Shown in pieces: positions 11,270 to 54,909 of a stretch of DNA of 64,000 bases. How positions within the stretch are numbered: position 1 is the stretch's first letter; each line of letters starts with the position of its first letter. Source of the stretch: Actinomycetota bacterium. GTDB taxonomy: Bacteria; Actinomycetota; UBA4738; HRBIN12. Under the pieces are notes generated by a model. That model searched no databases, had not been told where the DNA came from, and saw only the letters and a program-made list of their open reading frames with translations. The DNA lies in assembly GCA_036556805.1 (NCBI GenBank), contig DATBIS010000026.1, positions 31,382-95,381 of the forward strand, written 5' to 3'. Both the position numbers and the translations under genes were made by a program.

Positions 11270-12655
11270 TCAGCGGCGCCGCAAGACGACGAGCGACAGA
11301 AGGAACGCCACCGCGAACGCGGGCGCGCTGCCGCCCAACGCCGACCCACCGATGAGCGGGAACGGCAGGTGCAGGCCGTCGAAGAAGCGTCCGACCGCGT
11401 CGGTCCAGCCGGCGGGGCCCGTCGGCAGGCACCACTGGTACGTCACGAAGCCGGTCACCCACGGCGCGAGGGCTCGGGCGCGAAGCCCGGGCCGCGCGTC
11501 CTCGAACAGGTCTCGTTCGGTCGTGCGCCCGCGACGCAGGACGAAGTAGTCGGCGGCGAACACGCCGAACAGCGGCACGAACACCGAGCCGATCAGGAAC
11601 AGGAAGTACTCGAACGTCGACGCGGACCGCTCGATGAGCGTCGCGAGCACGAGGCCGACCGCGCCGACCGCGACGATGAGCCAGCGCTGTGAGAGCTGCG
11701 GCCGCACGTTCTGGATCGAGACCGCCGAGGAGTAGATGTTCGCCATCGCCTGGTCGCTCTCGCCGACGAGCAGCACCACGAGCACGACCGCACCGCCCGC
11801 GAGCGCGGCGATCTTCGTGCCGATGTCGAGCACGTCGGGCGCCGAGCCGGCCGCGAGCACCATGAGCGCGCCGAGCGCGTAGAACCAGACGTTGCCGGCC
11901 GCGTACCCCCAGTAGGTGCCCGCGAACGATCGGCTCCCTCGCTTCGCGAAGCGGTTGAAGTCGGCGACGAGCGGCAGCCACGAGATCGGCATCGCGATCA
12001 CGAGGTCGACGGCCGCCCAGAACGGCAGCCCGCCCGCCCCACGCTCCCGCCAGATCGCGCCGAGCTCGCCCGCGGACGCGACGCGGATCGTGATCCAGAC
12101 GCCGGCGGCGAGCACCACCCAGAACCCGAACCGCTCCAGCCAGCGGCGCACCACCAGCACCGGACCCCCCAGCGCGAGGGCCGTGCAGACGACCGCGACG
12201 ACGACGATCCAGAACCGGTACGAGTCGAAGCCCAGCAGGTCCTTGCCGACGGCGTTCGCGACGAGCCCCATCGCCCAGAACTCGAACGCGGTCCATCCCA
12301 CGAGCTGCACGAGGTTCACGAACGACGGGAGGAACGAGCCGCGCAGGCCGAGCACCGGTCTGAACAGCACCATGCCCGGCACCCCCTCGCGCGCGCCGGC
12401 GAGACCGACGAGCGCGAGCGGCACGCAGCCGATCACGGAACCGACCACGATCGCGAGCAGCGCGGTTCGCGTGCCGAGCGCCGGTACGAGCAGAGCACCC
12501 GTCACGAGCACGAGCAGCCCGATCGAGAGGTCGCCCCAGAGCACCGCGAGGTCGCGACCGCTGAGCCGACGGAGCTCGTCGGGGACGGGGCGGATGCCCC
12601 ACGCCGGCGCCTCGCGCGCGATGACCGTTTCCAGGCGCTCCGTGACGCTCGCCAT
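11270..12655 (-). CDS. NCS1 (purine-cytosine permease) family transporter, probably thiamine-precursor (HMP/CytX-like) uptake
   Basis: ORF 11270..12655. 12-TM permease resembling the CodB/CytX family. The functional call rests on the TPP riboswitch immediately upstream. Confidence 0.85.
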   Translation of the reverse strand: MASVTERLETVIAREAPAWGIRPVPDELRRLSGRDLAVLWGDLSIGLLVLVTGALLVPALGTRTALLAIVVGSVIGCVPLALVGLAGAREGVPGMVLFRPVLGLRGSFLPSFVNLVQLVGWTAFEFWAMGLVANAVGKDLLGFDSYRFWIVVVAVVCTALALGGPVLVVRRWLERFGFWVVLAAGVWITIRVASAGELGAIWRERGAGGLPFWAAVDLVIAMPISWLPLVADFNRFAKRGSRSFAGTYWGYAAGNVWFYALGALMVLAAGSAPDVLDIGTKIAALAGGAVVLVVLLVGESDQAMANIYSSAVSIQNVRPQLSQRWLIVAVGAVGLVLATLIERSASTFEYFLFLIGSVFVPLFGVFAADYFVLRRGRTTERDLFEDARPGLRARALAPWVTGFVTYQWCLPTGPAGWTDAVGRFFDGLHLPFPLIGGSALGGSAPAFAVAFLLSLVVLRRR

Positions 12656-41798: not shown

Positions 41799-43232
41799 CT
41801 AGTCGAGCGACACCATCACGTGCTTGATGTTCGTGTAGTCCTCCAACGAGTACACCGACATGTCTTTCCCGTGGCCCGACTGCTTGTACCCGCCGTGCGG
41901 CATCTCCGGCGTGAGCGGGATATGGGTGTTCACCCACACGCACCCGAACTGCAGCCGGCGCGACATCCGCATCGCGCGGCCGACGTCGCGGGTCCACACG
42001 CTCGCGGCGAGGCCGTAATCCACGCCGTTCGCCCACGCGAGCGCCTGGTCCTCGTCGTCGAACCGCTGCACGGTCACGACCGGTCCGAAGACCTCCTTCT
42101 GGATGATCTCCGAGTCCTGCGCCGCGTCGGCGACGATCGTCGGCTGGTAGAAGTAGCCGCTCGACTCCACGGGCGCGCCGCCGGTGAGCACCTTCGCCCC
42201 GGCCTCCTGCGCCCGCTCGACGAAGCCCTCGACACGCTCGAGCTGCTCCTTCGAGATCACGGAGCCGACCTCGGTGTCGTCCGCGAACGGGTCGCCCATC
42301 TTGATCGACTCGACCGCCGGCACGAGGTCGGTGAGCACGCGGTCGTACGCGCCCGAGCCCACCAGCACGCGCGTCGCGGCGGTGCAGTCCTGCCCGGCGT
42401 TGAAGTAGCCGGCGATCTTCACCCACTCGACCACGCTCTCGATGTCCGCGTCGTCGAAGACCACGACCGGCGCCTTGCCGCCGAGCTCGAGGTGCACGCG
42501 CTTCAAGGTGTCGGACGCGTTCGTGTGGATGATCTTGCCGGTGCCGACGTCGCCGGTGAGCGAGACGATGCCCACCTTCTCGTGGCGCACGAGCGTGTCG
42601 CCGACGGGGATTCCGTCGCCGGTCACGAGGTTGAACACGCCCGGCGGGAACAGGTCCGACGCGAGCTCCGCGAGCTTGATCGCCGTGAGCGGCGTGAGCT
42701 CGGAGGGCTTCAGGACGATCGTGTTGCCGGTCGCGAGCGCCGGGCCGATCTTCCAGATCGCCATCATCAGCGGGTAGTTCCACGGGGCGATGAGGCCGGC
42801 GACGCCGATTGGTTCGCGCCGGATGTAGGAGGTGAAGCCGGCCATGTACTCACCGGCCGTGCGGCCCTCCATCGTCCTTGCGGCGCCGCCGAAGAACCGC
42901 AGGTTGTCGACGATCGGCGGGATCTCCTCCGACATCGTCACCGCGTACGGCTTGCCCACGTTCCGCGCCTCGATCCCGACGATCTCGTCGGCGTTCTCCT
43001 CGATGCGATCGGCGAGCTTCAGGAGCGCGAGCTGTCGGTCCTTCGGGGTCGAGTCGTACCAGGTCTCGAACGCGGTGGCGGCGGCTTCCACGGCCCGGTT
43101 CGCATCCTCGGCGGTGCCTTCGGCGACGTTCGCGAGCACCTCACCGGTGGCCGGGTTGATGATGTCGCGCGTGCCCCCGTCGGAGGCGTCCGACCATTCG
43201 CCGTTGATGAACAACTTGTGGGTGTCTGCCAT
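41799..43232 (-). CDS. Aldehyde dehydrogenase (gamma-aminobutyraldehyde / betaine-aldehyde dehydrogenase-like)
   Basis: ORF 41799..43232. [43 protein letters not shown]. Confidence 0.9.
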
Positions 43233-43378: not shown

Positions 43379-44917
43379 TCACTCCGCGTCGACGGAGAGA
43401 AGGTCGCGCGCGCGGAGCGCGAGCCAGAACTCCATGCGATCGAACGAGCTCGCGAGGTCGCGGCCGGTGAGCTCCTCCACCTTGCGCATGCGATAGCGGA
43501 GGGTGTGCCGGTGCACGAACAGCTCGACCGCCGCCGCCTCCCAGCGGGCGTTGTGGTGGAGGAACGCCTGCAACGATCCGATCAGGTCCCCGCCCTGCTC
43601 GCGGTCGTATGCGACGAGCGGCGCCAGCAGCGAGTCGGCGAACGCGCGCAGCGCACCCTGGTCGGCCATCGAGAGCAACAGGCGATAGCTCCCCAGGTCC
43701 TCGAAGCCCGCGGAGAGCCGGCCCTCGAGCCTGCAGACCTGGAGCGCGTACCTGGCCTCCCGAAGCGACCGCCCCACCTCCATCACGGTCGCCGGTCCCC
43801 CGCCTCCCGCGAGCACGTCCGAGCCGAGCCGCTCTCCCACCGCCCGAGCGAGGAGCCCCGGATCGGCGGCGCCTGCCGGCCGCAGCACGAGCACGCCATT
43901 CGGATGGGTGGAGACCAGGAACCCGCCTCCGTCCCGCGCGCACTGTTCCGCGGCGGCCGTCGCGAGCGCGTTGGGATCGCCTCCCTCGAGCGCGATGGCC
44001 GCGACCGACCCCTCACGGTCGAAGCCGAACCGGGCGAGGTCGCGCGCCGCCGCGGCGGGCGCGAGGGAGCCGGCTGCAAGCTCGTCGAAGAAGTCGCCCT
44101 GCAGCCGGCGTTGCGCGTCGGCCACCGCGCGAGCCTTCGCGAGCTCGATCGCGAAGAGCGAGAGCGCGTGCGCCGCGACGATCCGGTCGTACTGGCTCGG
44201 CTGCTCGGGCTTGCCCACCGCGAGGAACGCCTCGACGTGACCCTGCGCGCCGACCGGCTGCACCCACACGTGGTGCCCGCGGTCGACGAGCGTAATCGAG
44301 AAGTTGGTCCCCTCCGCGCGGGAACTTCGGATCTCCTCCCATACGCGCTCGGCCCGGAGCGACGCGGCGCGAGAGGTCGCGGTGAGCGCGCCACCGTGCA
44401 GGTCGAACAGCAGCGCCCAGCCGCGCACCACGCGCGCGAGCGATCCCGCGATCCCCTCGACGCCCTTGCCGTCCATGACGGCCCGCGTGAGCACGTGCTC
44501 GGCGTCGACCGCGCGCTGCAGGGTGTCGTATTGCTCCGCGAGGATCCTCGTGAAGATCGCCTCGGTGATCGCGATGAAGGGGACGGGGAACGGCACCTCG
44601 AACACCGGGAAGTCGAGGCGATCGGCGGCTGCCACGATCGCCTTCGGGACGCGCTCGTGCGAGAACCCGAGCCCGAACCCGAGGCCCGCGAGGCCCGCGC
44701 CGGCGAGCCGCTTCACGTACGCGCGTTGGCTCGCGGGGGTCGCGCCCACGCCCATGCCGGTCGTGAGCACGATCTCGCCACCCTTCAGCCACGGCGTCGG
44801 GTCCTCGAGCTCGGAGACGTGTACCCATCGGACCTGGCGCCCGATCCCGGGCTCGCCCGCGAGCAGGCGCAACGGCAGGTCCGGCACCTCGAGCAGGTCG
44901 CGCACCGTCACGGCCAC
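43379..44917 (-). CDS. PucR/CdaR-family transcriptional regulator
   Basis: ORF 43379..44917 (GTG). PucR N-terminal domain (LLEVPDLPLRLLAGE...WVHVSELEDPTPWLKGGEIVLTTG) and C-terminal HTH (LFVHRHTLRYRMRKVEELTG). Confidence 0.85.
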   Translation of the reverse strand: MAVTVRDLLEVPDLPLRLLAGEPGIGRQVRWVHVSELEDPTPWLKGGEIVLTTGMGVGATPASQRAYVKRLAGAGLAGLGFGLGFSHERVPKAIVAAADRLDFPVFEVPFPVPFIAITEAIFTRILAEQYDTLQRAVDAEHVLTRAVMDGKGVEGIAGSLARVVRGWALLFDLHGGALTATSRAASLRAERVWEEIRSSRAEGTNFSITLVDRGHHVWVQPVGAQGHVEAFLAVGKPEQPSQYDRIVAAHALSLFAIELAKARAVADAQRRLQGDFFDELAAGSLAPAAAARDLARFGFDREGSVAAIALEGGDPNALATAAAEQCARDGGGFLVSTHPNGVLVLRPAGAADPGLLARAVGERLGSDVLAGGGGPATVMEVGRSLREARYALQVCRLEGRLSAGFEDLGSYRLLLSMADQGALRAFADSLLAPLVAYDREQGGDLIGSLQAFLHHNARWEAAAVELFVHRHTLRYRMRKVEELTGRDLASSFDRMEFWLALRARDLLSVDAE

Positions 44918-45086: not shown

Positions 45087-46430
45087 ATGGACATTCCCCA
45101 GGAGCGAAAGCTCGTCACCGAGATCCCGGGACCGAAGTCGAAGGAGTGGTTCGCGCGCCGTGAGGCTTCGGTCGCGACGGGTGTGTACAACATCCACCCG
45201 ATCGTCACGGCGCGCGCCGCCGGCGCGATCGTCGAGGACGTCGACGGCAACCGCTTGATCGACTTCGCGACCGGCATCTCGGTGTTGAACGTCGGCCACT
45301 CTTCGCCGACCGTGGTCGCCGCGGCTCAGCGGCAGCTGGAGCTCGACACGCACACCTGCTTCCACGTCACCGCGAACGAGCCGTACATCGAGCTCGCGGA
45401 ACGTCTGAACGCGCTCGCGCCTGGCGACGTCGCGAAGAAGACGATGTTCGCGAACTCCGGGGCCGAGGCCGTGGAGAACGCCGTGAAGATCGCGCGGAAC
45501 GCCACGGGCCGCTCCGCCGTCGTCGCGTTCGACCACGCGTTCCACGGCCGCACGCTGATGGGGATGTCGCTCACCGCGAAGGTGATGCCCTACAAGCAGG
45601 GCATGGGGCCGTTCGCGCCCGAGATCTACCGGCTTCCGTTCGCGTACCCGTACCGCTGTCCCACCGGAGGGACCGCCGAGACCTGCGCGGATTCATGCGC
45701 GGACTACGCGATCGACGAGATGCACAAGCACATCGGTGAGGACAACATCGCGGCGGTGATCATGGAGCCGATCCAGGGCGAGGGCGGCTTCGTCGTGCCG
45801 GCGACCGGCTTCGTGAAGCGGATCGCCGACTTCTGCGGCGAGCACGGCATCGTGTTCATCGCCGACGAGATCCAGAGCGGGATGGGCCGCGCGGGGCGCT
45901 GGTTCGCGATCGAAGACGAAGGCGTCGTGCCGGACATCGTGACGACCGCGAAGTCGCTCGGCGGCGGCCTGCCGATCTCCGGGATCACCGGCCGAGCCGA
46001 CCTGATGGACGCGGTGCACGCCGGCGGGCTCGGCGGCACCTACGGCGGGAACCCGGTCGCGGCCGCCGCGGCGCTCGCGGTGCTTGACCTGATCGAGCGC
46101 GACGGGCTGCTCGACCGATCGCGATCGCTGGGCGAACGGATCATGGCCCGATTCCGGGAGCTGCAGTCGCAATACGAGCTGGTCGGCGACGTGCGAGGCC
46201 GAGGAGCCATGTGCGCGATCGAGCTCGTGACCGATCGGGAGACCAAGGCACCGGCGGACGCGGCGACCGGCGCGATCGCGAGGCATTGCCTGGAGCAAGG
46301 CCTCATCGTGCTGTCGGCGGGCACGTACAACAACGTGCTCCGGCTACTGCCGCCGCTCACGATCGAAGACGGGCTGCTCGACGAGGGCCTCGGCATCCTC
46401 GACGACGCGATCGGAGCCGTCGCCGGGTAG
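45087..46430 (+). CDS. gabT: 4-aminobutyrate aminotransferase (class III PLP)
   Basis: ORF 45087..46430. FANSGAEAVENAVK, DEIQSGMGRAG, PLP Lys in TTAKSLGGG, GTYGGNP. Confidence 0.92.
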   Translation: MDIPQERKLVTEIPGPKSKEWFARREASVATGVYNIHPIVTARAAGAIVEDVDGNRLIDFATGISVLNVGHSSPTVVAAAQRQLELDTHTCFHVTANEPYIELAERLNALAPGDVAKKTMFANSGAEAVENAVKIARNATGRSAVVAFDHAFHGRTLMGMSLTAKVMPYKQGMGPFAPEIYRLPFAYPYRCPTGGTAETCADSCADYAIDEMHKHIGEDNIAAVIMEPIQGEGGFVVPATGFVKRIADFCGEHGIVFIADEIQSGMGRAGRWFAIEDEGVVPDIVTTAKSLGGGLPISGITGRADLMDAVHAGGLGGTYGGNPVAAAAALAVLDLIERDGLLDRSRSLGERIMARFRELQSQYELVGDVRGRGAMCAIELVTDRETKAPADAATGAIARHCLEQGLIVLSAGTYNNVLRLLPPLTIEDGLLDEGLGILDDAIGAVAG

Positions 46431-46500: not shown

Positions 46501-47778
46501 GTGAGCGAGCCCGCGAACGACGGCAGCGAAAGGGTTTCGCTCCTCCGCCGCCTCGCGATCGACACGACCCCGCTGCGCGTCTCGCGCCAGTTTCGGCTGG
46601 TATGGGGAGGGCTGCTCGTCTCGGCGACGGGCAGCCAATTCACGGTCGTCGCGGTCTTCGTCCAGGTCACGCGACTCACCGGATCGGAGGCGGCCGTGGG
46701 CCTCACCGGCCTCGTCTGGCTCGGCGGGCTGGTGGTCGGTTCGATCGTCGGCGGGACCATCCTCGATGCGTGGGACCGGCGCCGGACGCTGATCATGGCC
46801 CAGCTCGTGATCGCGGTGGGCGTGGGGACGCTGCTCGCCGGTTCGATCGCCGGCGACCCCCCGATCGGCGTGATCTATGCCGGTCTCGCGGTGATGGCCG
46901 CCGCGAGCGCGGTCGACGGGCCGACGCGGTCCGCGATGACGCCACGCCTGGTGGGCGCGGAGCTCATCCCGTCGGCGCAGGCCCTCAACCAGGTGATCTG
47001 GAACGGCGCCGGCATCGTCGGGCCGGCGATCGCCGGCCTCGCGATCCAGCGTTTCGGCGTCACGCTCGCGTACTCGGTCGACCTCGCGTCGGTGGGCGCG
47101 ATGCTGCTCGCGGCTCTTGCCTTGCACCCGATGCCGCCGGAGGAGCACGAGGAGAACGAGACCGGCCTTCGGGCCGTGCGCCAGGGCTTCGCATACGTGC
47201 GCCGCGCGCGACTGATCCAGGCGACGTTCGCGATCGACCTGGTCGCGATGGTGTTCGGCCTGCCGCGCGCGCTCTTCACCTTCCTCGCCGTCGAGCAGTT
47301 TGGTCGCGGCGTGGGCATCGTCGGGCTGCTGTTCTCCGCGCCAGCCGTGGGCGCGATGCTCGGGGCGCTCACGAGCGGTTGGACGAGATCCGTGCAGCGC
47401 CAGGGCCGGGCCGTCGCGATCGCCGTGTCGGCATGGGGCGTCGCGATCGTCGCCTTCGGGCTGGTGGGCGACCGGTTGTGGCTCGCGCTCGCGTTGCTCG
47501 CGATCGCGGGATGGGCCGACGTCATCAGCGCGATCTTCCGCAACACGATCCTGCAGCTGAGCGTCCCCGACCGCCTTCGGGGTCGGTTGTCGGGCATCCA
47601 CGTCCTCGTCGTGACCGGTGGGCCGCGACTCGGGGACTTCGAGGCCGGGCTCGTGGCTCGCCTCGTCTCGCCGGGGTTCAGCGTGGTGTCGGGCGGGCTC
47701 GCGTGCATCGTGGGCGCCGGCGCGGTCGCGCTCGCGTACCCGGAGCTCCGGCGCCAGCGCGCGAGCGCGCGCCCCTGA
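46501..47778 (+). CDS. MFS transporter (EntS/MFS_3-like exporter)
   Basis: ORF 46501..47778 (GTG). 12 predicted TM helices. N-terminal FRLVWGGLLVSATGSQF is typical of this MFS subgroup. Confidence 0.8.
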   Translation: MSEPANDGSERVSLLRRLAIDTTPLRVSRQFRLVWGGLLVSATGSQFTVVAVFVQVTRLTGSEAAVGLTGLVWLGGLVVGSIVGGTILDAWDRRRTLIMAQLVIAVGVGTLLAGSIAGDPPIGVIYAGLAVMAAASAVDGPTRSAMTPRLVGAELIPSAQALNQVIWNGAGIVGPAIAGLAIQRFGVTLAYSVDLASVGAMLLAALALHPMPPEEHEENETGLRAVRQGFAYVRRARLIQATFAIDLVAMVFGLPRALFTFLAVEQFGRGVGIVGLLFSAPAVGAMLGALTSGWTRSVQRQGRAVAIAVSAWGVAIVAFGLVGDRLWLALALLAIAGWADVISAIFRNTILQLSVPDRLRGRLSGIHVLVVTGGPRLGDFEAGLVARLVSPGFSVVSGGLACIVGAGAVALAYPELRRQRASARP

Positions 47779-47791
47779 GTACGCTTCGCGC

Positions 47792-49477
47792 ATGGCCGAC
47801 CCGGTCGAGCTGGTGGAGCTCCGCGTCCTCGACGGACCGAACCTCTACTTCCCCCGCCCCGCCGTGAAGGTGACGATCGCGGCGCCCGGCTGGATGCGCG
47901 CGCCGACCGAGAAGGTCGAAGAGGTCGCGCGGCGACTCGGGATGCGCGCGCGGCACGGGGGCGACCCGCAGTCCGAGCACCGCCGTCGCTTCACGGCGCG
48001 CGTCGCGAAACGGTTGGTCGGCCGGGGCGCGGCCGCGACCACGACGAGACTCGCCGTTCGTTCGCGGGCAGGTCCCCAGCCCGGCGAGATCGTGGTGGCG
48101 TTCCCCTGGCGGCGCCGCGGCTCGGCAGAGGCGCTCGGGCACGAGCTCGTGTGGCTGCTCGGCGCGGTGCTCCGGCGTTCGCCCGATCGCGCGATCACCG
48201 AGGCGGTCGGCCGGGTCGCCGCCGTCGATCCCGGCGAGGAGCCCACGGTGCCGGAGCCCGAGGTGCCGGTGATCCAGGTGACCGGCACGAACGGCAAGAC
48301 CACCACGACGCGGCTGCTCGCTCACATCGTGCGCGCCGCCGGCAAGCACGTGGCGTTCTCGTCGACCGACGGCGTGTATGCGGACGATGAGCTCGTGCAG
48401 GCGGGCGACTACTCGGGGTTCGGCGGCGCCGCCACGGCGCTCGCGCAATCGCCGGACGTCGCGGTGCTCGAGACGGCCCGAGGGGGGATCCTCCTGCGCG
48501 GGATCGGCGTCGCGCACAACGACGTCGCGGTCGTCACGAACGTCACCGAGGATCACCTGGACCTGCAGGGGATCCGCACGCTCGACCAGCTCGCCGAGGT
48601 GAAGGCGACGATCACGAAGATCACGCGGCCGGGCGGCTGGGCGGTGTTGAACGCCGACGATCCGCGCGTGCTCGCGATGCGCCGCGGGTGCTCCGGCCGA
48701 GTCTGGCTGTTCTCGCTCGACCCCGATCACCCCGCGATCCGCGAGGTGCTCGCGGAGGGCGGCCGCGCGATCGCGCCGCTCGACGGGTTCGTGACGGTGC
48801 TGGACGGATCGAGCGCTCGACAGCTGGTGGCGCTCGTCGACGTCCCGGTCACGATCGCCGGTGTCGCGAGCGTGTACGTCCAGAACGCGCTCGCCGCCAC
48901 CGCGGCCGCGCTCGCCGTGGGCCTGCCCGAGCGGGCGGTCGTCAAGGGGTTGCGGACGTTCGTGCTCGACCCCGAGCGGAACCCCGGCCGCGCGAACCTG
49001 TTCCGGCTCGAGCGTCGCACCGTGGTCGTGGACTACGCGCACAACGAGGCCGGCATGAACGGCCTCACCGAGCTCTGCCGCGGACTTCGCCCGCCGGGCG
49101 GCGAGATCTGGCTCGCGTTCGGCACCGCCGGCGATCGCACCGACCGCATCCTGCACAACTTCGCGGTGGCGGCCGCGCGCGGCGCCGACCACCTCGCGAT
49201 CGCCGAGCAGCTGCGCTACCTTCGCGGCCGCGATCGCGAGGAGCTGATCGAGCGGCTCCACGCCGGCGCGCGCGACGGCGGCGCACACGAGGTGCCGGTG
49301 TACGAGGACGAGCTGCACGCGCTCGACGCGATGCTCGAGGCTTCCAAGCCGGGCGACGTCGTGGCAGTCACCGCGCTCGCGCAGCGGCCCGAGGTCTTCG
49401 CGACGATGCAGCGGCTCGGCGCCGAGCGGCTCACACCGGGCAAGGTGCGCACCTTGGTGCGGCGCGCGGCGTCCTGA
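47792..49477 (+). CDS. Cyanophycin synthetase-like ligase lacking the ATP-grasp domain (CphA N-domain + Mur-ligase M-domain only)
   Basis: In frame with ORF 47618..49477; ATG at 47792. The N-terminal ~170 aa parallel the CphA N domain (LRVLDGPNLYFPRP, EIVVAFPWRRRGSAEALGHELVWLL). They run directly into the Mur-ligase P-loop VIQVTGTNGKTTTTRLLAHIV, followed by NVTEDHLD, DYAHNEAG and GTAGDRTD. Confidence 0.8.
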   Translation: MADPVELVELRVLDGPNLYFPRPAVKVTIAAPGWMRAPTEKVEEVARRLGMRARHGGDPQSEHRRRFTARVAKRLVGRGAAATTTRLAVRSRAGPQPGEIVVAFPWRRRGSAEALGHELVWLLGAVLRRSPDRAITEAVGRVAAVDPGEEPTVPEPEVPVIQVTGTNGKTTTTRLLAHIVRAAGKHVAFSSTDGVYADDELVQAGDYSGFGGAATALAQSPDVAVLETARGGILLRGIGVAHNDVAVVTNVTEDHLDLQGIRTLDQLAEVKATITKITRPGGWAVLNADDPRVLAMRRGCSGRVWLFSLDPDHPAIREVLAEGGRAIAPLDGFVTVLDGSSARQLVALVDVPVTIAGVASVYVQNALAATAAALAVGLPERAVVKGLRTFVLDPERNPGRANLFRLERRTVVVDYAHNEAGMNGLTELCRGLRPPGGEIWLAFGTAGDRTDRILHNFAVAAARGADHLAIAEQLRYLRGRDREELIERLHAGARDGGAHEVPVYEDELHALDAMLEASKPGDVVAVTALAQRPEVFATMQRLGAERLTPGKVRTLVRRAAS

Positions 49478-49478
49478 C

Positions 49479-49814
49479 TCAGCGAGCGGCGCTGCAGGTC
49501 ACGCACAGCACCGACCACGGACGGGCCTGGAGCCGTACCTCGGGGATCTCGTTCCCGCAGGAGTCGCACCGGCCGTAGGTGCCCTCGTCGAGCTTCGCGA
49601 GCGCGCGGTCGACGTCCTCGAGCATCGCGGCGAGCGCGGTCGCCGTCCCGACCTGGTTCAGCCGCTCGACGGCCTGCGTGGTCCCGTCCCCCACGCGCTT
49701 GCCGAACGAGACCGCCTCCATCGGATCCCGCGGGACCGCGGTGAGCACCGCGAGCTCGTCCGACACCTCGCGCCGACGCGTGTTGAGCGCCTCGAGGACC
49801 TCCTCGGGCCTCAC
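49479..49814 (-). CDS. DksA/TraR-family C4 zinc-finger protein
   Basis: C-terminal 111 aa of ORF 49479..51362. The GTG at 49814 overlaps the cphA stop (GTGA). Coiled-coil-like N-terminus, then CDSCGNEIPEVRLQARPWSVLCVTC (C-x2-C-x17-C-x2-C). Confidence 0.75.
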   Translation of the reverse strand: MRPEEVLEALNTRRREVSDELAVLTAVPRDPMEAVSFGKRVGDGTTQAVERLNQVGTATALAAMLEDVDRALAKLDEGTYGRCDSCGNEIPEVRLQARPWSVLCVTCSAAR

Positions 49815-52660
49815 GTGGGGTTCGCGCTGAGTTCGAGGAAGTCGGGGTCGCCGCCGACCGCCTCGACGTGCCCGTTCCCCTCGGCGGGCAGCAGCACCGC
49901 CGGCGACGCCATCCCGCGGCGGGCCTCGAGCTCCCTGTAGACCTCGGTGGCGTAGTCGACGCAGAGCACCACGATGTCGCCGGGCCGCGAGCGATCGAGC
50001 GCGCGGCGGGCGGCGTCCATCTCGTCCACCACGATCTCGGCGTAACCGGCGCGCGCCCCGCCGGCCTCCGCGGCCTGGTGAAGGCCCTCCATGATCAACA
50101 TCGCGGTCTCGCCGCGCTCGCGGCCGCGGTTGTTGCGGTCCTCTCGCACGATCACCTCGTCGAAGTAGCGCGCGGCCACCCGACCGAGCTCTCGCATGTC
50201 CTCGTCGCGCCGGTCGCCCGCCGTGGCGACCACGCCCACCCGCAGGTTGGCGCCGCCGCCGGCGGTGTCGGCGGTGAGCCGCTCGACGAAGTCGCCGAGC
50301 GTCTGCAGGCCCGCCGCATTGTGCGCGTAGTCGATCACCACGCGGACGCCGTCCAGGTCGAACACGTTCAGCCGCCCGGGCGCCTGATAGATCGACGTCG
50401 TGAACGTCCGCAGCCCCTGGCGGATGTCGTGCAGGTGCGCGCCGGCCGCGTGCGCGGCGCCGGCCGCGGCCATCGCGTTCTGCACCATCATGCGGGCCTT
50501 GCCCTCGAACGTGGCCGGCAGCGTGTGCACCCACGCGATCGGCGACGAGCGCCGCCCCTCGCGCAGCACGATCTTCTCGCCGAGCGGGCCGCGCTCGAGC
50601 ACGACCGCCTTGCCGCCGCGGCGCACCCATCGCTCGACGAGGTCGTTGCGGTCCTGCATCGTGAAGAGGATCACCGAGCCGCTGCACGCGCGGCGCATCT
50701 CGGCGACGAGCGCGTCGTCGGCATTCAGCACCGCCCAGCCGGTCTTCGGGACGGCCTCCACCACCACCTGCTTCACGGCCGCCAGCTGCTCGAGCGTCTC
50801 GATCTCGCGGAGCCCGAGGTGGTCGCCGGTGACGTTCAGCACCACCGCGACGTCGTTGCGCCCGTAGCCGAGCCCTTCGCGAAGGATCCCGCCGCGAGCG
50901 ACCTCGAACACCGCGAAGTCCACGCGCGGGTTCTGCAGCACCATCTGCGCGGACTTCGGCCCGCTCGCGTCCACGCGCCTCACGAGCCGCTCGTCGATGT
51001 ACACGCCGTCGGTGGACGTCATGCCGATCTTCCGACCCATCCCGCGAAGGATGTGCGCGATCATCCGGGTGGTCGTGGTCTTCCCGTTGGACCCGGTCAC
51101 GGCCACGATCGGGATGCGCGCCGGCGTGCCGGGCGGGAACAGCCCGTCGATGACGTCCTTCGCGACGTACTGCGGCTCGCCCTCGGTCGGGTGCGTGTGC
51201 ATGCGGAACCCGGGCGCCGCGTTCACCTCGACGATCGCGCCGCCGGTCTCGCGCACCGGCTGGCTGATGTCGGGCGCCAGGAAGTCGATGCCGGCGACGT
51301 CGAGGCCGACCACGCGCGCAGCCTCCTCCGCGATCTCGATGTTGTCCTCGTGCGCCTCCCACGTGCGGTCGATCGAGATACCGCCGGTGGACATGTTGCC
51401 GGTGGCAGCGAGCAGCACGCGCAGGTCCTTCGGCGGGACGTCGTCGGGCGTGAACCCCTGTGCGGCGAGGAGCTCCTCGGCCTTCTCGTCGAGCTTGATG
51501 CGCGTGAGGACCTTCTCGTGACCGATGCCGCGTCGCGGGTCGGCGTTCGTGATGTCGAGCAGCTTGCGGATCGTGCGCCTCCCGTCACCGACGACGTGGG
51601 CCGGCACGCGCTCGGCGATCGCCACCATCCGCCCGCCGACCACCAGCACGCGGTAGTCGTTGCCGACGACGTAGGACTCGACCACCACGTCGCCCCGCCG
51701 CGACTCCTCCTGCGAGCGATGGAAGTTGACCCGCACCGCCTCCTCGTCGCGGAGGTCGAGGCACACGCCGCGGCCGTGGTTCCCGTCGAGCGGCTTCGTC
51801 ACGACGGGGTAGCCGATGCGCTTCGCGGCGCCCACCGCTTCGTCCTCGGTGCGAACGACCTCGCTGCGCGGGACGGGGAGCCCGGCCGCCGCGAGCAGCT
51901 GGTTGGTCATCTTCTTGTCGCCTGCGATGTCGACCGCGAGCGCGGAGGTCTTCGACGTCATCGTCGCGCGGATGCGCTGCTGGTACTTGCCCCATCCGAG
52001 CTGCACGAGCGAGGCCTCGTTCAGCCGCATGTAGGGGATGTCGCGCGAGGCGGCCTCGTCGATCAGCGCCTGCGTCGACGGGCCGAACGCGCGCCGTTCG
52101 GCGAGGAGGATCAGCCGCTCGAGCTCCGCCCGGAAGTCGAAGCCGGGCTCCTTCTTCACGAGGTGGTTCACGAGCCGGACCGCGAGCTTGCCGGCCTCGG
52201 CCCCCACGCGCTCCTCCCAGTAGCCGTAGATGACGTGGTACTGGCCGGGCGCGCCGGCGCTGCGCGTCTTGCCGCGATAGACGTGCGCGCCCGACTCCTT
52301 CTGGAGCTCGAGTGCGACGTGCTCGGCGACGTGACCGAGCCACGTCCCGTCGGTGAGGCGCTCGCGGAAGCCGCCGCGCTTGCCGAGCGAGCAGGAGTGC
52401 TCGCCGACGCCCGGCAGCGCCGCGAGGAGCCCGTCGTTGAACCCCGGGATCGTGTTCGAAGGCCAGTCCTCGAGCGAGCCCAGGTCGACGAGCAGACGGA
52501 TGCACGGCTCGTAGGACCAGAAGTTGGGCCCGCGGAAGACCTGCGTCTGCAGGATCTTGAGGTCGGGCTTCGGGCGACCGGTCCTCTGCGCCGGGGCCTC
52601 GCCCCGCTTCGCCTGCTGCCGTTCGCCGCGTGACTTCTGTTTCGCCGGTCCCCGCGTCAC
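49811..52660 (-). CDS. cphA: Cyanophycin synthetase (N, ATP-grasp G and Mur-ligase M domains)
   Basis: Within ORF 49811..52888. The GTG at 52660 overlaps the cphB stop (GTGA). N domain ILQTQVFRGPNFWSYEP. ATP-grasp region (YPVVTKPLDGNHGRGV, GIDFL). M domain (VTGSNGKTTTTRM, NVTGDHLG, DYAHNAAG). Confidence 0.92.
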   Translation of the reverse strand: MTRGPAKQKSRGERQQAKRGEAPAQRTGRPKPDLKILQTQVFRGPNFWSYEPCIRLLVDLGSLEDWPSNTIPGFNDGLLAALPGVGEHSCSLGKRGGFRERLTDGTWLGHVAEHVALELQKESGAHVYRGKTRSAGAPGQYHVIYGYWEERVGAEAGKLAVRLVNHLVKKEPGFDFRAELERLILLAERRAFGPSTQALIDEAASRDIPYMRLNEASLVQLGWGKYQQRIRATMTSKTSALAVDIAGDKKMTNQLLAAAGLPVPRSEVVRTEDEAVGAAKRIGYPVVTKPLDGNHGRGVCLDLRDEEAVRVNFHRSQEESRRGDVVVESYVVGNDYRVLVVGGRMVAIAERVPAHVVGDGRRTIRKLLDITNADPRRGIGHEKVLTRIKLDEKAEELLAAQGFTPDDVPPKDLRVLLAATGNMSTGGISIDRTWEAHEDNIEIAEEAARVVGLDVAGIDFLAPDISQPVRETGGAIVEVNAAPGFRMHTHPTEGEPQYVAKDVIDGLFPPGTPARIPIVAVTGSNGKTTTTRMIAHILRGMGRKIGMTSTDGVYIDERLVRRVDASGPKSAQMVLQNPRVDFAVFEVARGGILREGLGYGRNDVAVVLNVTGDHLGLREIETLEQLAAVKQVVVEAVPKTGWAVLNADDALVAEMRRACSGSVILFTMQDRNDLVERWVRRGGKAVVLERGPLGEKIVLREGRRSSPIAWVHTLPATFEGKARMMVQNAMAAAGAAHAAGAHLHDIRQGLRTFTTSIYQAPGRLNVFDLDGVRVVIDYAHNAAGLQTLGDFVERLTADTAGGGANLRVGVVATAGDRRDEDMRELGRVAARYFDEVIVREDRNNRGRERGETAMLIMEGLHQAAEAGGARAGYAEIVVDEMDAARRALDRSRPGDIVVLCVDYATEVYRELEARRGMASPAVLLPAEGNGHVEAVGGDPDFLELSANPT

Positions 52661-53520
52661 TCCGAGGCCTCCCGCTCCTGGAGGGCGCTCGGTCCCGCGA
52701 GCAGCTCCCGAGAGCGGAGGTCGAACCAGTATCCGGAAGGGAGCGAGTGCAGGACGGCGCCCGACACCATGAGCGGACGATAGCCCTTTCCGCGGTAGGC
52801 GTCGGACCGGACGTGCCGGCCGTCGACGATCGTGACGGCGCCCTTGCCGATGACCTGCAGCGACTGATCGGCGTGGACGACCGCGCACGTGTCCTCGTCG
52901 ACGCCCATGCCGAGCAGCGCCGGCGACTGCGCGACGAGCGCAAGCAGGCGCCCGATCCGCCCGCGCTGCTCGAAGTGCTGGTCGATCACGATGCCCTGCA
53001 AGATGCCGAGGCCCGCAGAGAGCTGCACCATCCGGTTCTTCGGCGTCGTGCCCGACTGCCCGAACGCGACCATGTGGGAGGCCATCGCGCTCGCGCCGGC
53101 CGACGTGCCGGCAAGCACGGCGCCGCGGTCGTGCGCGTTCGCGAGCGCGTCGCCGAGCCGCGTCCCGCCGACGACCTGGGTAAGCCTCGACTGGTTGCCG
53201 CCGGTGAGGAACACACCGCTGGCCTCGCGCACGAGCTCGGCGGCGGACGGCGCGTCCGCCTCCTCGCGCTCCTCCGGACGGAGCCCGCTCACCCTTCCGA
53301 TCCCGAGGCCGGTCAGGAGCTCGACGTAGGTCTGGGTGGCCACGTCCCCGAGCGCCGACGCCGTGGAGACCACGACGACGTGTCCCTCCTCGCCGCCCGC
53401 GAGCTTCGCGAACCGGGCGAGGATGTGCTTGTCGCGAAGCTTGTCCTCCGCGCCCCCGATCACCATGACCGGGCCGGCGGTCGCGATGCCGGCGAGGCGC
53501 GGCGTGCGTGGTTCGCTCAT
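52657..53520 (-). CDS. cphB: Cyanophycinase (peptidase S51)
   Basis: ORF 52657..53580; start chosen at the ATG at 53520 (MSEPRTPRLAG). VMVIGGAEDK, FLTGGNQSRL, nucleophile region LAGTSAGAS, IDQHFEQRGR. Confidence 0.88.
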   Translation of the reverse strand: MSEPRTPRLAGIATAGPVMVIGGAEDKLRDKHILARFAKLAGGEEGHVVVVSTASALGDVATQTYVELLTGLGIGRVSGLRPEEREEADAPSAAELVREASGVFLTGGNQSRLTQVVGGTRLGDALANAHDRGAVLAGTSAGASAMASHMVAFGQSGTTPKNRMVQLSAGLGILQGIVIDQHFEQRGRIGRLLALVAQSPALLGMGVDEDTCAVVHADQSLQVIGKGAVTIVDGRHVRSDAYRGKGYRPLMVSGAVLHSLPSGYWFDLRSRELLAGPSALQEREASE

Positions 53521-53610
53521 CGGGTCAGTGTAGTCCGGGGACCTGGCGGTTTTGTCGTCGATCCCGTCCATCATCGGCACACGCCACGTCGCATTGAGCG
53601 AGCGGCCCGC

Positions 53611-54321: not shown

Positions 54322-54909
54322 GTGGAACGTCCCGAGCACGGTCACGACCCGACCATCGCCCCGGCCGCCCCGGGGGACCTCGAGCTCGTCCGCGGCTTCC
54401 TCTCGCTGCACGAACACGCCGGCGACCGCCTGCACAGCCTGCCGCCGTCGACCTCCACCCTCGAATGGTGGTTCCGCTCGCACGGGCTGCTCCGCGACGG
54501 CGAACCGGCCCCCGAGGACGACCTCGCGTGGGCGGCGACCATCCAGGACGACCTTCGCGGGAAGGTCACCCGCGACGGGGAGCACCCCGTCGACCGCGGG
54601 TCGGCCGAGCGCCTGAACGAGGCCGCCCGCGAGTCCGGGATCGAGATCCGGTTCGCGGAGGGCGGGGGGTCCGGGTTCGAGTCGCGAGCGACCGGCATCC
54701 GTGGCGCGATCGGCCGCCTGCTCGGCATCGCGTTCCTCGCCGAGCTCGACGGCACGTGGTCGAACCTGAAGACCTGCGGCAGCCATGCATGCAGGTCGGT
54801 GTTCTACGACCGGTCGAAGAACCGCTCGGGCAAGTGGTGCTCGATGCAAACGTGCGGCAACCGGGCGAAGGTCCGCGCGTTCCGCGAGCGCAACCCGACG
54901 GGCTCGTGA
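54322..54909 (+). CDS. CGNR zinc-finger (ABATE-domain) protein
   Basis: ORF 54322..54909 (GTG). C-terminal CGSHACRSVFYDRSKNRSGKWCSMQTCGNRAKV matches the zf-CGNR signature. Confidence 0.8.
   Translation: MERPEHGHDPTIAPAAPGDLELVRGFLSLHEHAGDRLHSLPPSTSTLEWWFRSHGLLRDGEPAPEDDLAWAATIQDDLRGKVTRDGEHPVDRGSAERLNEAARESGIEIRFAEGGGSGFESRATGIRGAIGRLLGIAFLAELDGTWSNLKTCGSHACRSVFYDRSKNRSGKWCSMQTCGNRAKVRAFRERNPTGS

Follow-up and report, generated by a model that had tools for sequence, protein, structure and literature searches.

Cyanophycin is a store of nitrogen and carbon and a candidate biopolymer feedstock, and to our knowledge only two types of cyanophycin synthetase are known, CphA1 and CphA2. CphA1 combines an N-terminal (N) domain, an ATP-grasp (G) domain and a Mur-ligase (M) domain; in approximately 83% of CphA1 the N domain carries Cx19HxxEH, the motif of a zinc endo-cyanophycinase (PMC9262961), and the chain held at the M site, which necessarily ends in an unmodified Asp, sits between the N domain and the M core (PMC9427784). 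In CphA2, which polymerises beta-Asp-Arg, G is the sole catalytic domain and M is truncated and inactive (PMC10273328). Here, we describe a third architecture, encoded in a stretch of 64,000 nucleotides (hereafter the window) from an Actinomycetota bacterium (GenBank assembly GCA_036556805.1, contig DATBIS010000026.1, positions 31,382 to 95,381 of the forward strand). The gene, at 47792..49477 on the plus strand of the window, encodes a 561-aa CphA paralog that has N and M domains but no G domain, and for which we here use the term 'N-M protein'. It is convergent with a full-length cphA1 (49811..52660, minus strand), which is followed by the cyanophycinase gene cphB. The architecture is conserved and abundant, and its genes are linked to cphA1-cphB in two phyla that dominate soils. 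A literature search found no description of it, whether as CphA3 or as a truncated or ATP-grasp-less synthetase (the 2021 CphA1 structure paper lay outside the coverage of that search), and the cyanophycin bioinformatics paper does not mention it.

Domain architecture of the N-M protein

The M domain is readily recognised. In Pfam the N-M protein matches Mur_ligase_M (E 5e-23; 82.6 bits, cut-off 24) and Mur_ligase_C (E 1e-13; 52.3 bits, cut-off 28.4) and no ATP-grasp family, whereas the neighbouring CphA1 matches PF18921, five ATP-grasp families and both Mur domains. TIGR02068 matches this CphA1 from end to end (1171 bits, over the cut-off of 850) but covers only profile positions 477-847 in the N-M protein (372 bits, E 5.5e-111). 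Residues 158-540 align with residues 516-912 of the neighbouring CphA1 at 42% identity over 400 columns (BLASTP, E 2e-69), and the nearest solved relatives are CphA1 structures (7lg5, E 3e-70), with MurE next at approximately 1e-17. The motifs of the Mur superfamily are all present (the GxxGKT P-loop, D-x-A-H-N/T and GDR), as are, letter for letter, the motif strings quoted in the preliminary description of this locus.

Within the M domain, the core spans residues ~158-395 (48263..48976, plus strand; Mur_ligase_M, PF08245) and contains the P-loop G165-T172 (48284-48307) together with T192, E227, N250, D254/H255, K271 and N287, all at least 95% conserved in both N-M proteins and CphA1. The lid, residues ~396-530 (Mur_ligase_C, PF02875), and a C-terminal helix occupy 48977..49477 on the same strand; here R400, D414, H417, N418 and G447-D448-R449 are kept, and E419 (in AHNE) and Y476 (in YLRGR) are specific to the family. 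Across 95 family members, K169, T170, T192, E227, H255, K271, R400, H417 and D448-R449 are at least 95% conserved. In TeCphA1, residues K499, T500, T522, E558, R731 and H748 have ATP/Mg-binding and lid roles, and the conserved catalytic residues of the N-M proteins correspond to the ATP/Mg ligands described there (PMC9427784). The M domain thus looks complete, of CphA type and active as far as its residues tell, and because the ATP-Mg residues are so strongly conserved the protein is likely to be an active ligase. The earlier statement that the ligase motifs are intact is supported.

The N domain (residues 1-157; 47792..48262, plus strand) is far more diverged, at ~13-17% identity to the CphA1 N domain. 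PF18921 was not detected in residues 1-157 even at an E-value of 10, the only match being a chance one to DUF6074, so that the domain scan anticipated in the preliminary description came out as expected for both Mur domains and for the lack of ATP-grasp but not for the CphA N domain. BLASTP of the N region gave a weak but colinear alignment (residues 5-131 against CphA1 residues 34-172, E 0.17). A profile-profile alignment with hhalign, using 83 N-M sequences against 51 CphA1 sequences (the partner CphA1s plus those of Synechocystis and Trichodesmium), returned the register first proposed by eye (P 0.0011, 104 colinear columns). A template-free AlphaFold2 model of the N domain alone reached a pLDDT of 92.9. 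In a Foldseek search of the PDB with this model, every one of the top 15 matches is the N domain of a CphA1 or CphA2 structure (E 2.8e-5 to 4.7e-2, TMq 0.50-0.63), and those that follow have E > 0.3 and TMq <= 0.3. The matched CphA structures were released from 2021 onwards; the AlphaFold2 training set is older than the CphA structures. By its predicted fold, residues 1-157 are hence a CphA N domain that has become too diverged for Pfam. A search with the N profile did not connect the region to CphA1 N domains at the sequence level among the matches listed, as none of the best 150 of 330 matches is a protein of ~900 aa.

The full-length model (pLDDT 83.7) superposes on CphA1 7lgj_A with a TMq of 0.75 over 874 columns, with both N and M placed and the G domain skipped; against MurE the Foldseek TMq is ~0.5 and the E-value ~1e-19. 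In this model N and M adopt the mutual arrangement that they have in CphA1, and the protein is predicted to be a free-standing module, with an N domain of CphA type docked onto a full Mur-ligase M domain. The originally proposed architecture of N plus M without G is accordingly borne out by Pfam, by the TIGR02068 positions matched and by the model alignment, and the protein is, as had been argued, not a CphA2, given that it has no G domain and that its M domain retains full length, the lid and every motif.

Two features of the N domain stand out. Its most conserved motif, ELRVLDGPNLYFPRPA / GPNLYF, is the counterpart of the RGPNYWSI loop of SuCphA1, in which Y14 and I17 touch the M domain (PMC9262961). 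The Cx19HxxEH motif is found in 0 of the 83 N-M N domains but in 50 of 51 partner CphA1s, including the neighbouring one. We suggest that N has been kept together with M because the chain at the M site of CphA1 is flanked by both the N domain and the M core.

Spread of the family and linkage to cphA1-cphB

A word-indexed search scored 7982 homologues of the N-M protein, the best 120 of which are 553-596 aa long with 97-100% query coverage and 66-100% identity. Their database names are 'cyanophycin synthetase' at JGI and 'Mur ligase family protein' at NCBI, and the family is currently mis- or under-annotated. In a scan of one genome per GTDB species, relatives were found in at least 584 species; the 80 best of these genomes are all metagenome-assembled genomes (MAGs), most of them labelled as Actinomycetota and one set as Dormibacterota or Chloroflexi. 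The 330 matches of the N-domain profile among 1.84 billion representatives are, as far as listed, fragments or proteins of ~560 aa, and almost all of the full-length ones listed have 557-585 aa. The single exception is a divergent member of 745 aa on a Logan contig (P0137), which carries a C-terminal TPR_5 domain (E 1e-23) that suggests protein-protein interaction. NCBI places other divergent members in MAGs of Microlunatus and Antricoccus. An assembly deletion does not account for the missing G domain, since proteins of ~560 aa with this architecture are present in 584 or more species and number thousands among metagenome proteins.

M-domain identities are 41-68% between N-M proteins, 31-40% between an N-M protein and any CphA1, and 46-69% between CphA1s, which indicates one old clade with a fixed architecture, separate from CphA1, rather than repeated recent deletions of G. 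It is a possibility that the family descends from a pre-fusion N-M ancestor into which ATP-grasp was later inserted to make CphA1.

Gene linkage was assessed by tblastn of the window proteins against 82 loci, and the loci of distant lineages were examined in addition. Downstream sequence of 9 kb or more is available for 50 close loci, and in 42 of them cphA1 lies within 10 kb on the opposite strand (recognised by an N+G match), almost always followed by cphB. In three of the eight exceptions (L035, L037 and L080) a dksA-like gene that is linked to cphA1 appears at the very end of the flank. In loci of Dormibacterota type, the N-M gene and cphA1 stand tail to tail and, where this was checked (L067), their ends overlap, the N-M open reading frame (ORF) ending at 11704 and cphA1 at 11682. 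The arrangement extends to distant lineages with ~41-55% M-domain identity: the two genes are convergent in L083, L086/L087 and L088, and L085 has the co-directional order cphB-x-cphA1-(N-M) with a gap of 25 bp. In L089 the N-M gene is immediately preceded by a fragment that ends in Mur_ligase_C and is probably the 3' part of cphA1, and an overlapping M20 peptidase gene lies downstream. Linkage to cphA1-cphB thus characterises the family, and conserved synteny in several lineages and two gene orientations strongly supports the functional tie to cphA that had been proposed from this one locus. Several outcomes were looked for that would speak against a CphA paralog with such a tie, and what was found is an N domain that is CphA-like in its predicted fold, homologues that cluster with cph genes and not with murein, MurT or GatD genes, catalytic residues that are kept, and no sign of an assembly deletion.

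Proposed function and alternatives

Without the ~330-aa ATP-grasp domain, the N-M protein cannot extend the Asp backbone. That a G-less, M-keeping architecture is conserved and tied to cphA1-cphB implies an unrecognised enzymatic step in cyanophycin metabolism, and because the gene almost always lies beside a complete cphA1 this is probably an extra step in making or modifying cyanophycin. We give roughly even chances to the proposal that the protein is a free-standing ATP-dependent amide ligase for cyanophycin-type chains, acting beside CphA1 and CphB and probably with altered specificity. After binding ATP-Mg it would phosphorylate, as the M domain of CphA1 does, a carboxylate that is still free in the chain, the most likely target being the beta-carboxylate of the C-terminal Asp newly added by the G domain of CphA1. 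An amine or amino acid would then be joined to this carboxylate, with release of ADP and Pi. The residue added or the chain context accepted would probably not be identical to those of CphA1 arginylation, and the protein may make the side chains more diverse or control chain length by capping.

The suggestion of altered specificity comes from substrate-contact motifs. In SuCphA1 numbering, S542 of CphA1 is replaced by G212 in the N-M family, A/E567 by R236 (in GGILxRG) and P/A750 by E419 (in AHNE); the charged motifs GDRRDxD and (K/R)ED are lost, and Y476 in YLRGR is gained without a CphA1 counterpart. These positions are invariant in all CphA1s compared and changed in every N-M lineage. Among the losses are the acidic, CphA1-invariant lid residues D781, E800 and D801, which are plausible partners for a guanidinium group. 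The comparison points to a substrate, or a way of binding it, that has diverged from that of CphA1; the residue added may therefore not be arginine, and simple arginylation or re-arginylation of poly-Asp, as first envisaged, is slightly disfavoured. A more specific form of the proposal, which we put forward tentatively and consider unlikely as it stands, is a third type of cyanophycin-pathway ligase, a counterpart of CphA2, that attaches a residue other than arginine or acts at another carboxylate, for example the free alpha-carboxylate of the Arg side chains. If so, the cyanophycin-like polymer of soil Actinomycetota and Dormibacterota would be chemically distinct, or end-capped and controlled in length. 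Attachment of another side chain, or capping, would explain how the composition or length of cyanophycin is controlled and would offer a tool for tailored poly-amino-acid materials, and a stand-alone N-M module would in any case be a simpler system for the poorly resolved half-reaction of side-chain ligation.

Several points weigh against a ligase of altered specificity. Catalytic activity is a prediction here, as are the substrate and the product. The partner CphA1s keep intact M domains of their own, so that no missing step calls for a second side-chain ligase, and 5 to 8 of the 50 close loci have no cphA1 within 10 kb. By analogy with the DNPR and GDR sites of MurE, some of the changed positions would line the pocket for the incoming amino acid. 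Alternatively, they may form part of the charged surface of the lid along which the polymer is guided (compare PMC9427784). The charge of the N domain is also inconsistent: close members are basic (mean net charge +7.5), distant members range from -14 to +7 and the whole family from -14 to +18. No uniform electrostatic argument about the polymer follows, and a basic N domain as a family-wide argument for polymer binding was dropped on account of the distant members.

The alternative with the closest chemistry is an auxiliary arginine (or lysine) ligase that performs the reaction of the CphA1 M domain in trans, speeding up the M step, rescuing chains with an unmodified terminal Asp, or using free Asp and Arg to make beta-Asp-Arg or short primers. 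The nearest M-domain relatives are indeed CphA1 M domains with every catalytic residue kept, the N-M arrangement that forms the chain-binding site of CphA1 is predicted to be retained, synteny with cphA1-cphB is conserved, and an N domain without the primer-generating zinc site makes another primer route conceivable. However, the M domain of the partner CphA1s is intact and 50 of the 51 carry the primer-generating motif, which leaves no obvious need for such help, and the loss of D781, E800 and D801 in every N-M lineage sits poorly with arginine as the substrate; we regard this explanation as rather doubtful. The protein could also be a non-catalytic partner, that is, a scaffold, a regulator or a subunit of a hetero-oligomer that binds cyanophycin or CphA1. 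CphA2 offers a precedent for domains kept for structure alone, with its inactive M and non-catalytic N (PMC10273328), and the TPR extension of P0137 and the tight gene pairing with cphA1 would suit a binding role. Yet ATP/Mg and acyl-phosphate residues that are at least 95% conserved across lineages of 41-68% identity are typical of an active enzyme, and the inactive M of CphA2 is truncated where that of the N-M protein is complete, which makes a non-catalytic role improbable.

We attach as little weight to a ligase for a small molecule or peptide unrelated to cyanophycin, with a product exported by the neighbouring major facilitator superfamily (MFS) transporter or with a tie to putrescine and GABA, the adjacency to cphA being incidental. 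In the window, gabT, the MFS gene and the N-M gene are co-directional, with the 13 nt between the last two that the preliminary description had reported; of 72 close loci, 49 have an MFS gene upstream, and in seven loci with the MFS gene there is no cphA1 within 10 kb. But MFS and gabT are absent from all Dormibacterota-type and distant loci (0 with an MFS gene), in which cphA1 is still adjacent in varied orientations, three of the loci counted as lacking cphA1 are those whose flank ends with the dksA-like gene that is linked to cphA1, and a retained CphA N domain is hard to explain under this alternative. The linkage to MFS belongs to one actinobacterial sub-lineage only, and the 'exported product' considered earlier is therefore not a family property. 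Finally, the NCBI name 'Mur ligase family protein' and weak matches to MurE models might suggest a peptidoglycan Mur ligase of MurE, MurF or MurT type, and a cphA pseudogene or an assembly artefact may be considered alongside it. MurE, MurF and MurT models nevertheless stay far under their cut-offs (at best 113 bits against 373 for MurE, and 42 against 800 for the MurT model NF052464), Pfam finds neither a Mur N-terminal (UDP-binding) domain nor DUF1727, neither dcw genes nor GatD turned up among the neighbours in the loci covered, and the ORF is intact, has a G+C content at third codon positions (GC3) of 0.92 and belongs to an architecture present in at least 584 species; explanations of this kind are very improbable.

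Gene neighbourhood and comparison with known systems

The G+C content of the window is 69-74%, and the gene order given here comes from a GC3-based gene call and the ORF listing. The ATG of the N-M gene, 13 nt past the stop of the MFS gene, is not preceded by an obvious Shine-Dalgarno sequence. A longer ORF from a GTG at 47618 overlaps the MFS gene and is spurious, because homologues begin at M1, the same position as the ATG at 47792. The MFS gene itself (46501..47778, plus strand) is of MFS_3/EntS-like type (PF05977, E 1e-32; NF007792, 221 bits, under the cut-off of 324). It follows gabT (45087-46430, plus strand) in a putrescine/GABA catabolic unit that also includes genes for a PucR regulator (43379-44917, minus strand) and an aminobutyraldehyde dehydrogenase (41799-43232, minus strand). 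This unit lies directly upstream of the MFS and N-M genes in an order kept in most close actinobacterial loci, and it may link the breakdown of arginine released from cyanophycin to the locus.

On the minus strand, cphB (52657..53580; TIGR02069, 255 bits, cut-off 127; PF03575), cphA1 (TIGR02068 and Pfam; domains N with Cx19HxxEH, G and M) and a gene for a 111-aa DksA/TraR-type zinc-finger protein (49479..49814; PF01258, E 4e-12) follow each other with overlaps of 4 nt (GTGA), the stop of cphB overlapping the start of cphA1; the DksA/TraR-type gene is thus translationally coupled to cphA1, as cphA1 is to cphB. A homologue of this gene occurs in 38 of 90 loci, beside cphA1 wherever positions were compared, which suggests a dedicated regulator of the cyanophycin genes. 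Its stop lies 1 nt from that of the convergent N-M gene, leaving no room for terminators. Divergent from the cphB-cphA1 operon is a gene for a CGNR zinc-finger protein (54322-54909, plus strand), whose position is kept in many close loci.

Other loci contain further genes near the N-M gene. An M20 metallopeptidase gene adjoins it in five loci that have no MFS gene, in three arrangements. The copies in L085 (13098-14264, plus strand) and L089 (2266-3237, plus strand) are closest to PRK06133 'glutamate carboxypeptidase', under its cut-off, and those in L039 (4674-5798), L068 (6415-7101) and L078 (7927-9072), all on the minus strand, were found by tblastn at 47-48% identity; the enzyme could be a dipeptidase of these clusters or a hint to the residue added. 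In L001 (11893-13467, plus strand), and also in L023, L048 and L009, which have no adjacent cphA1, a conserved protein of ~524 aa without a Pfam match follows the N-M protein. The ORF between cphB and cphA1 in L085 (6215-7057, plus strand; 280 aa) has neither a Pfam match nor a homologue in the other loci. Of the loci in which 2.7-5 kb separate the N-M gene from cphA1, the two whose inserts were examined, L018 (11717-13977) and L031 (11775-15958), have trehalose genes there; these are otsA (GT20) and the otsB phosphatase gene, with a GH15 trehalase-like gene in L031 as well. They place two storage or stress systems side by side but were rejected as a functional clue, since they say nothing on function. 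A LysE exporter near the Dormibacterota locus L067 was likewise rejected, being present in that single locus only.

Compared with MurE and other peptidoglycan Mur ligases, the N-M protein has the same central and C-terminal Mur domains and would share their acyl-phosphate mechanism, but it has a CphA N domain where they have a UDP-MurNAc-binding one, and it has no cell-wall gene context. It differs from MurT/GatD, the lipid II amidotransferase, in having neither DUF1727 nor, in the loci examined, a GatD-like neighbour. Tandem cphA/cphA' pairs of beta-proteobacteria were reportedly described by Fuser and Steinbuchel in 2007 as suggesting a two-component synthesis of cyanophycin; the second copies there are said to be full-length N-G-M proteins, unlike the G-less N-M protein.

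CphA1 (TIGR02068; PDB 7LG5, 7LGJ, 7LGQ and 7WAC) is much closer. The N fold, the Mur-type M core and lid (39-42% identity), the ATP/Mg residues and the predicted arrangement of N and M are common to both, and the N-M gene adjoins both cphA1 and cphB. What CphA1 has in addition is the ~330-aa G domain and the Cx19HxxEH endo-cyanophycinase site, and its invariant motifs SGPxS, RRDxD, (K/R)ED and AHN(P/A) are replaced in the N-M protein. CphA2 (PDB 7TA5 and 8FXH) resembles the N-M protein in another way: both are simplified CphA proteins with a non-peptidase N domain and one catalytic domain, and both are found in cyanophycin gene neighbourhoods. CphA2 is cyanobacterial, whereas the N-M protein occurs in Actinomycetota and Dormibacterota, and the two are mirror images of each other, CphA2 having G with a truncated and inactive M, and the N-M protein a complete M without G.

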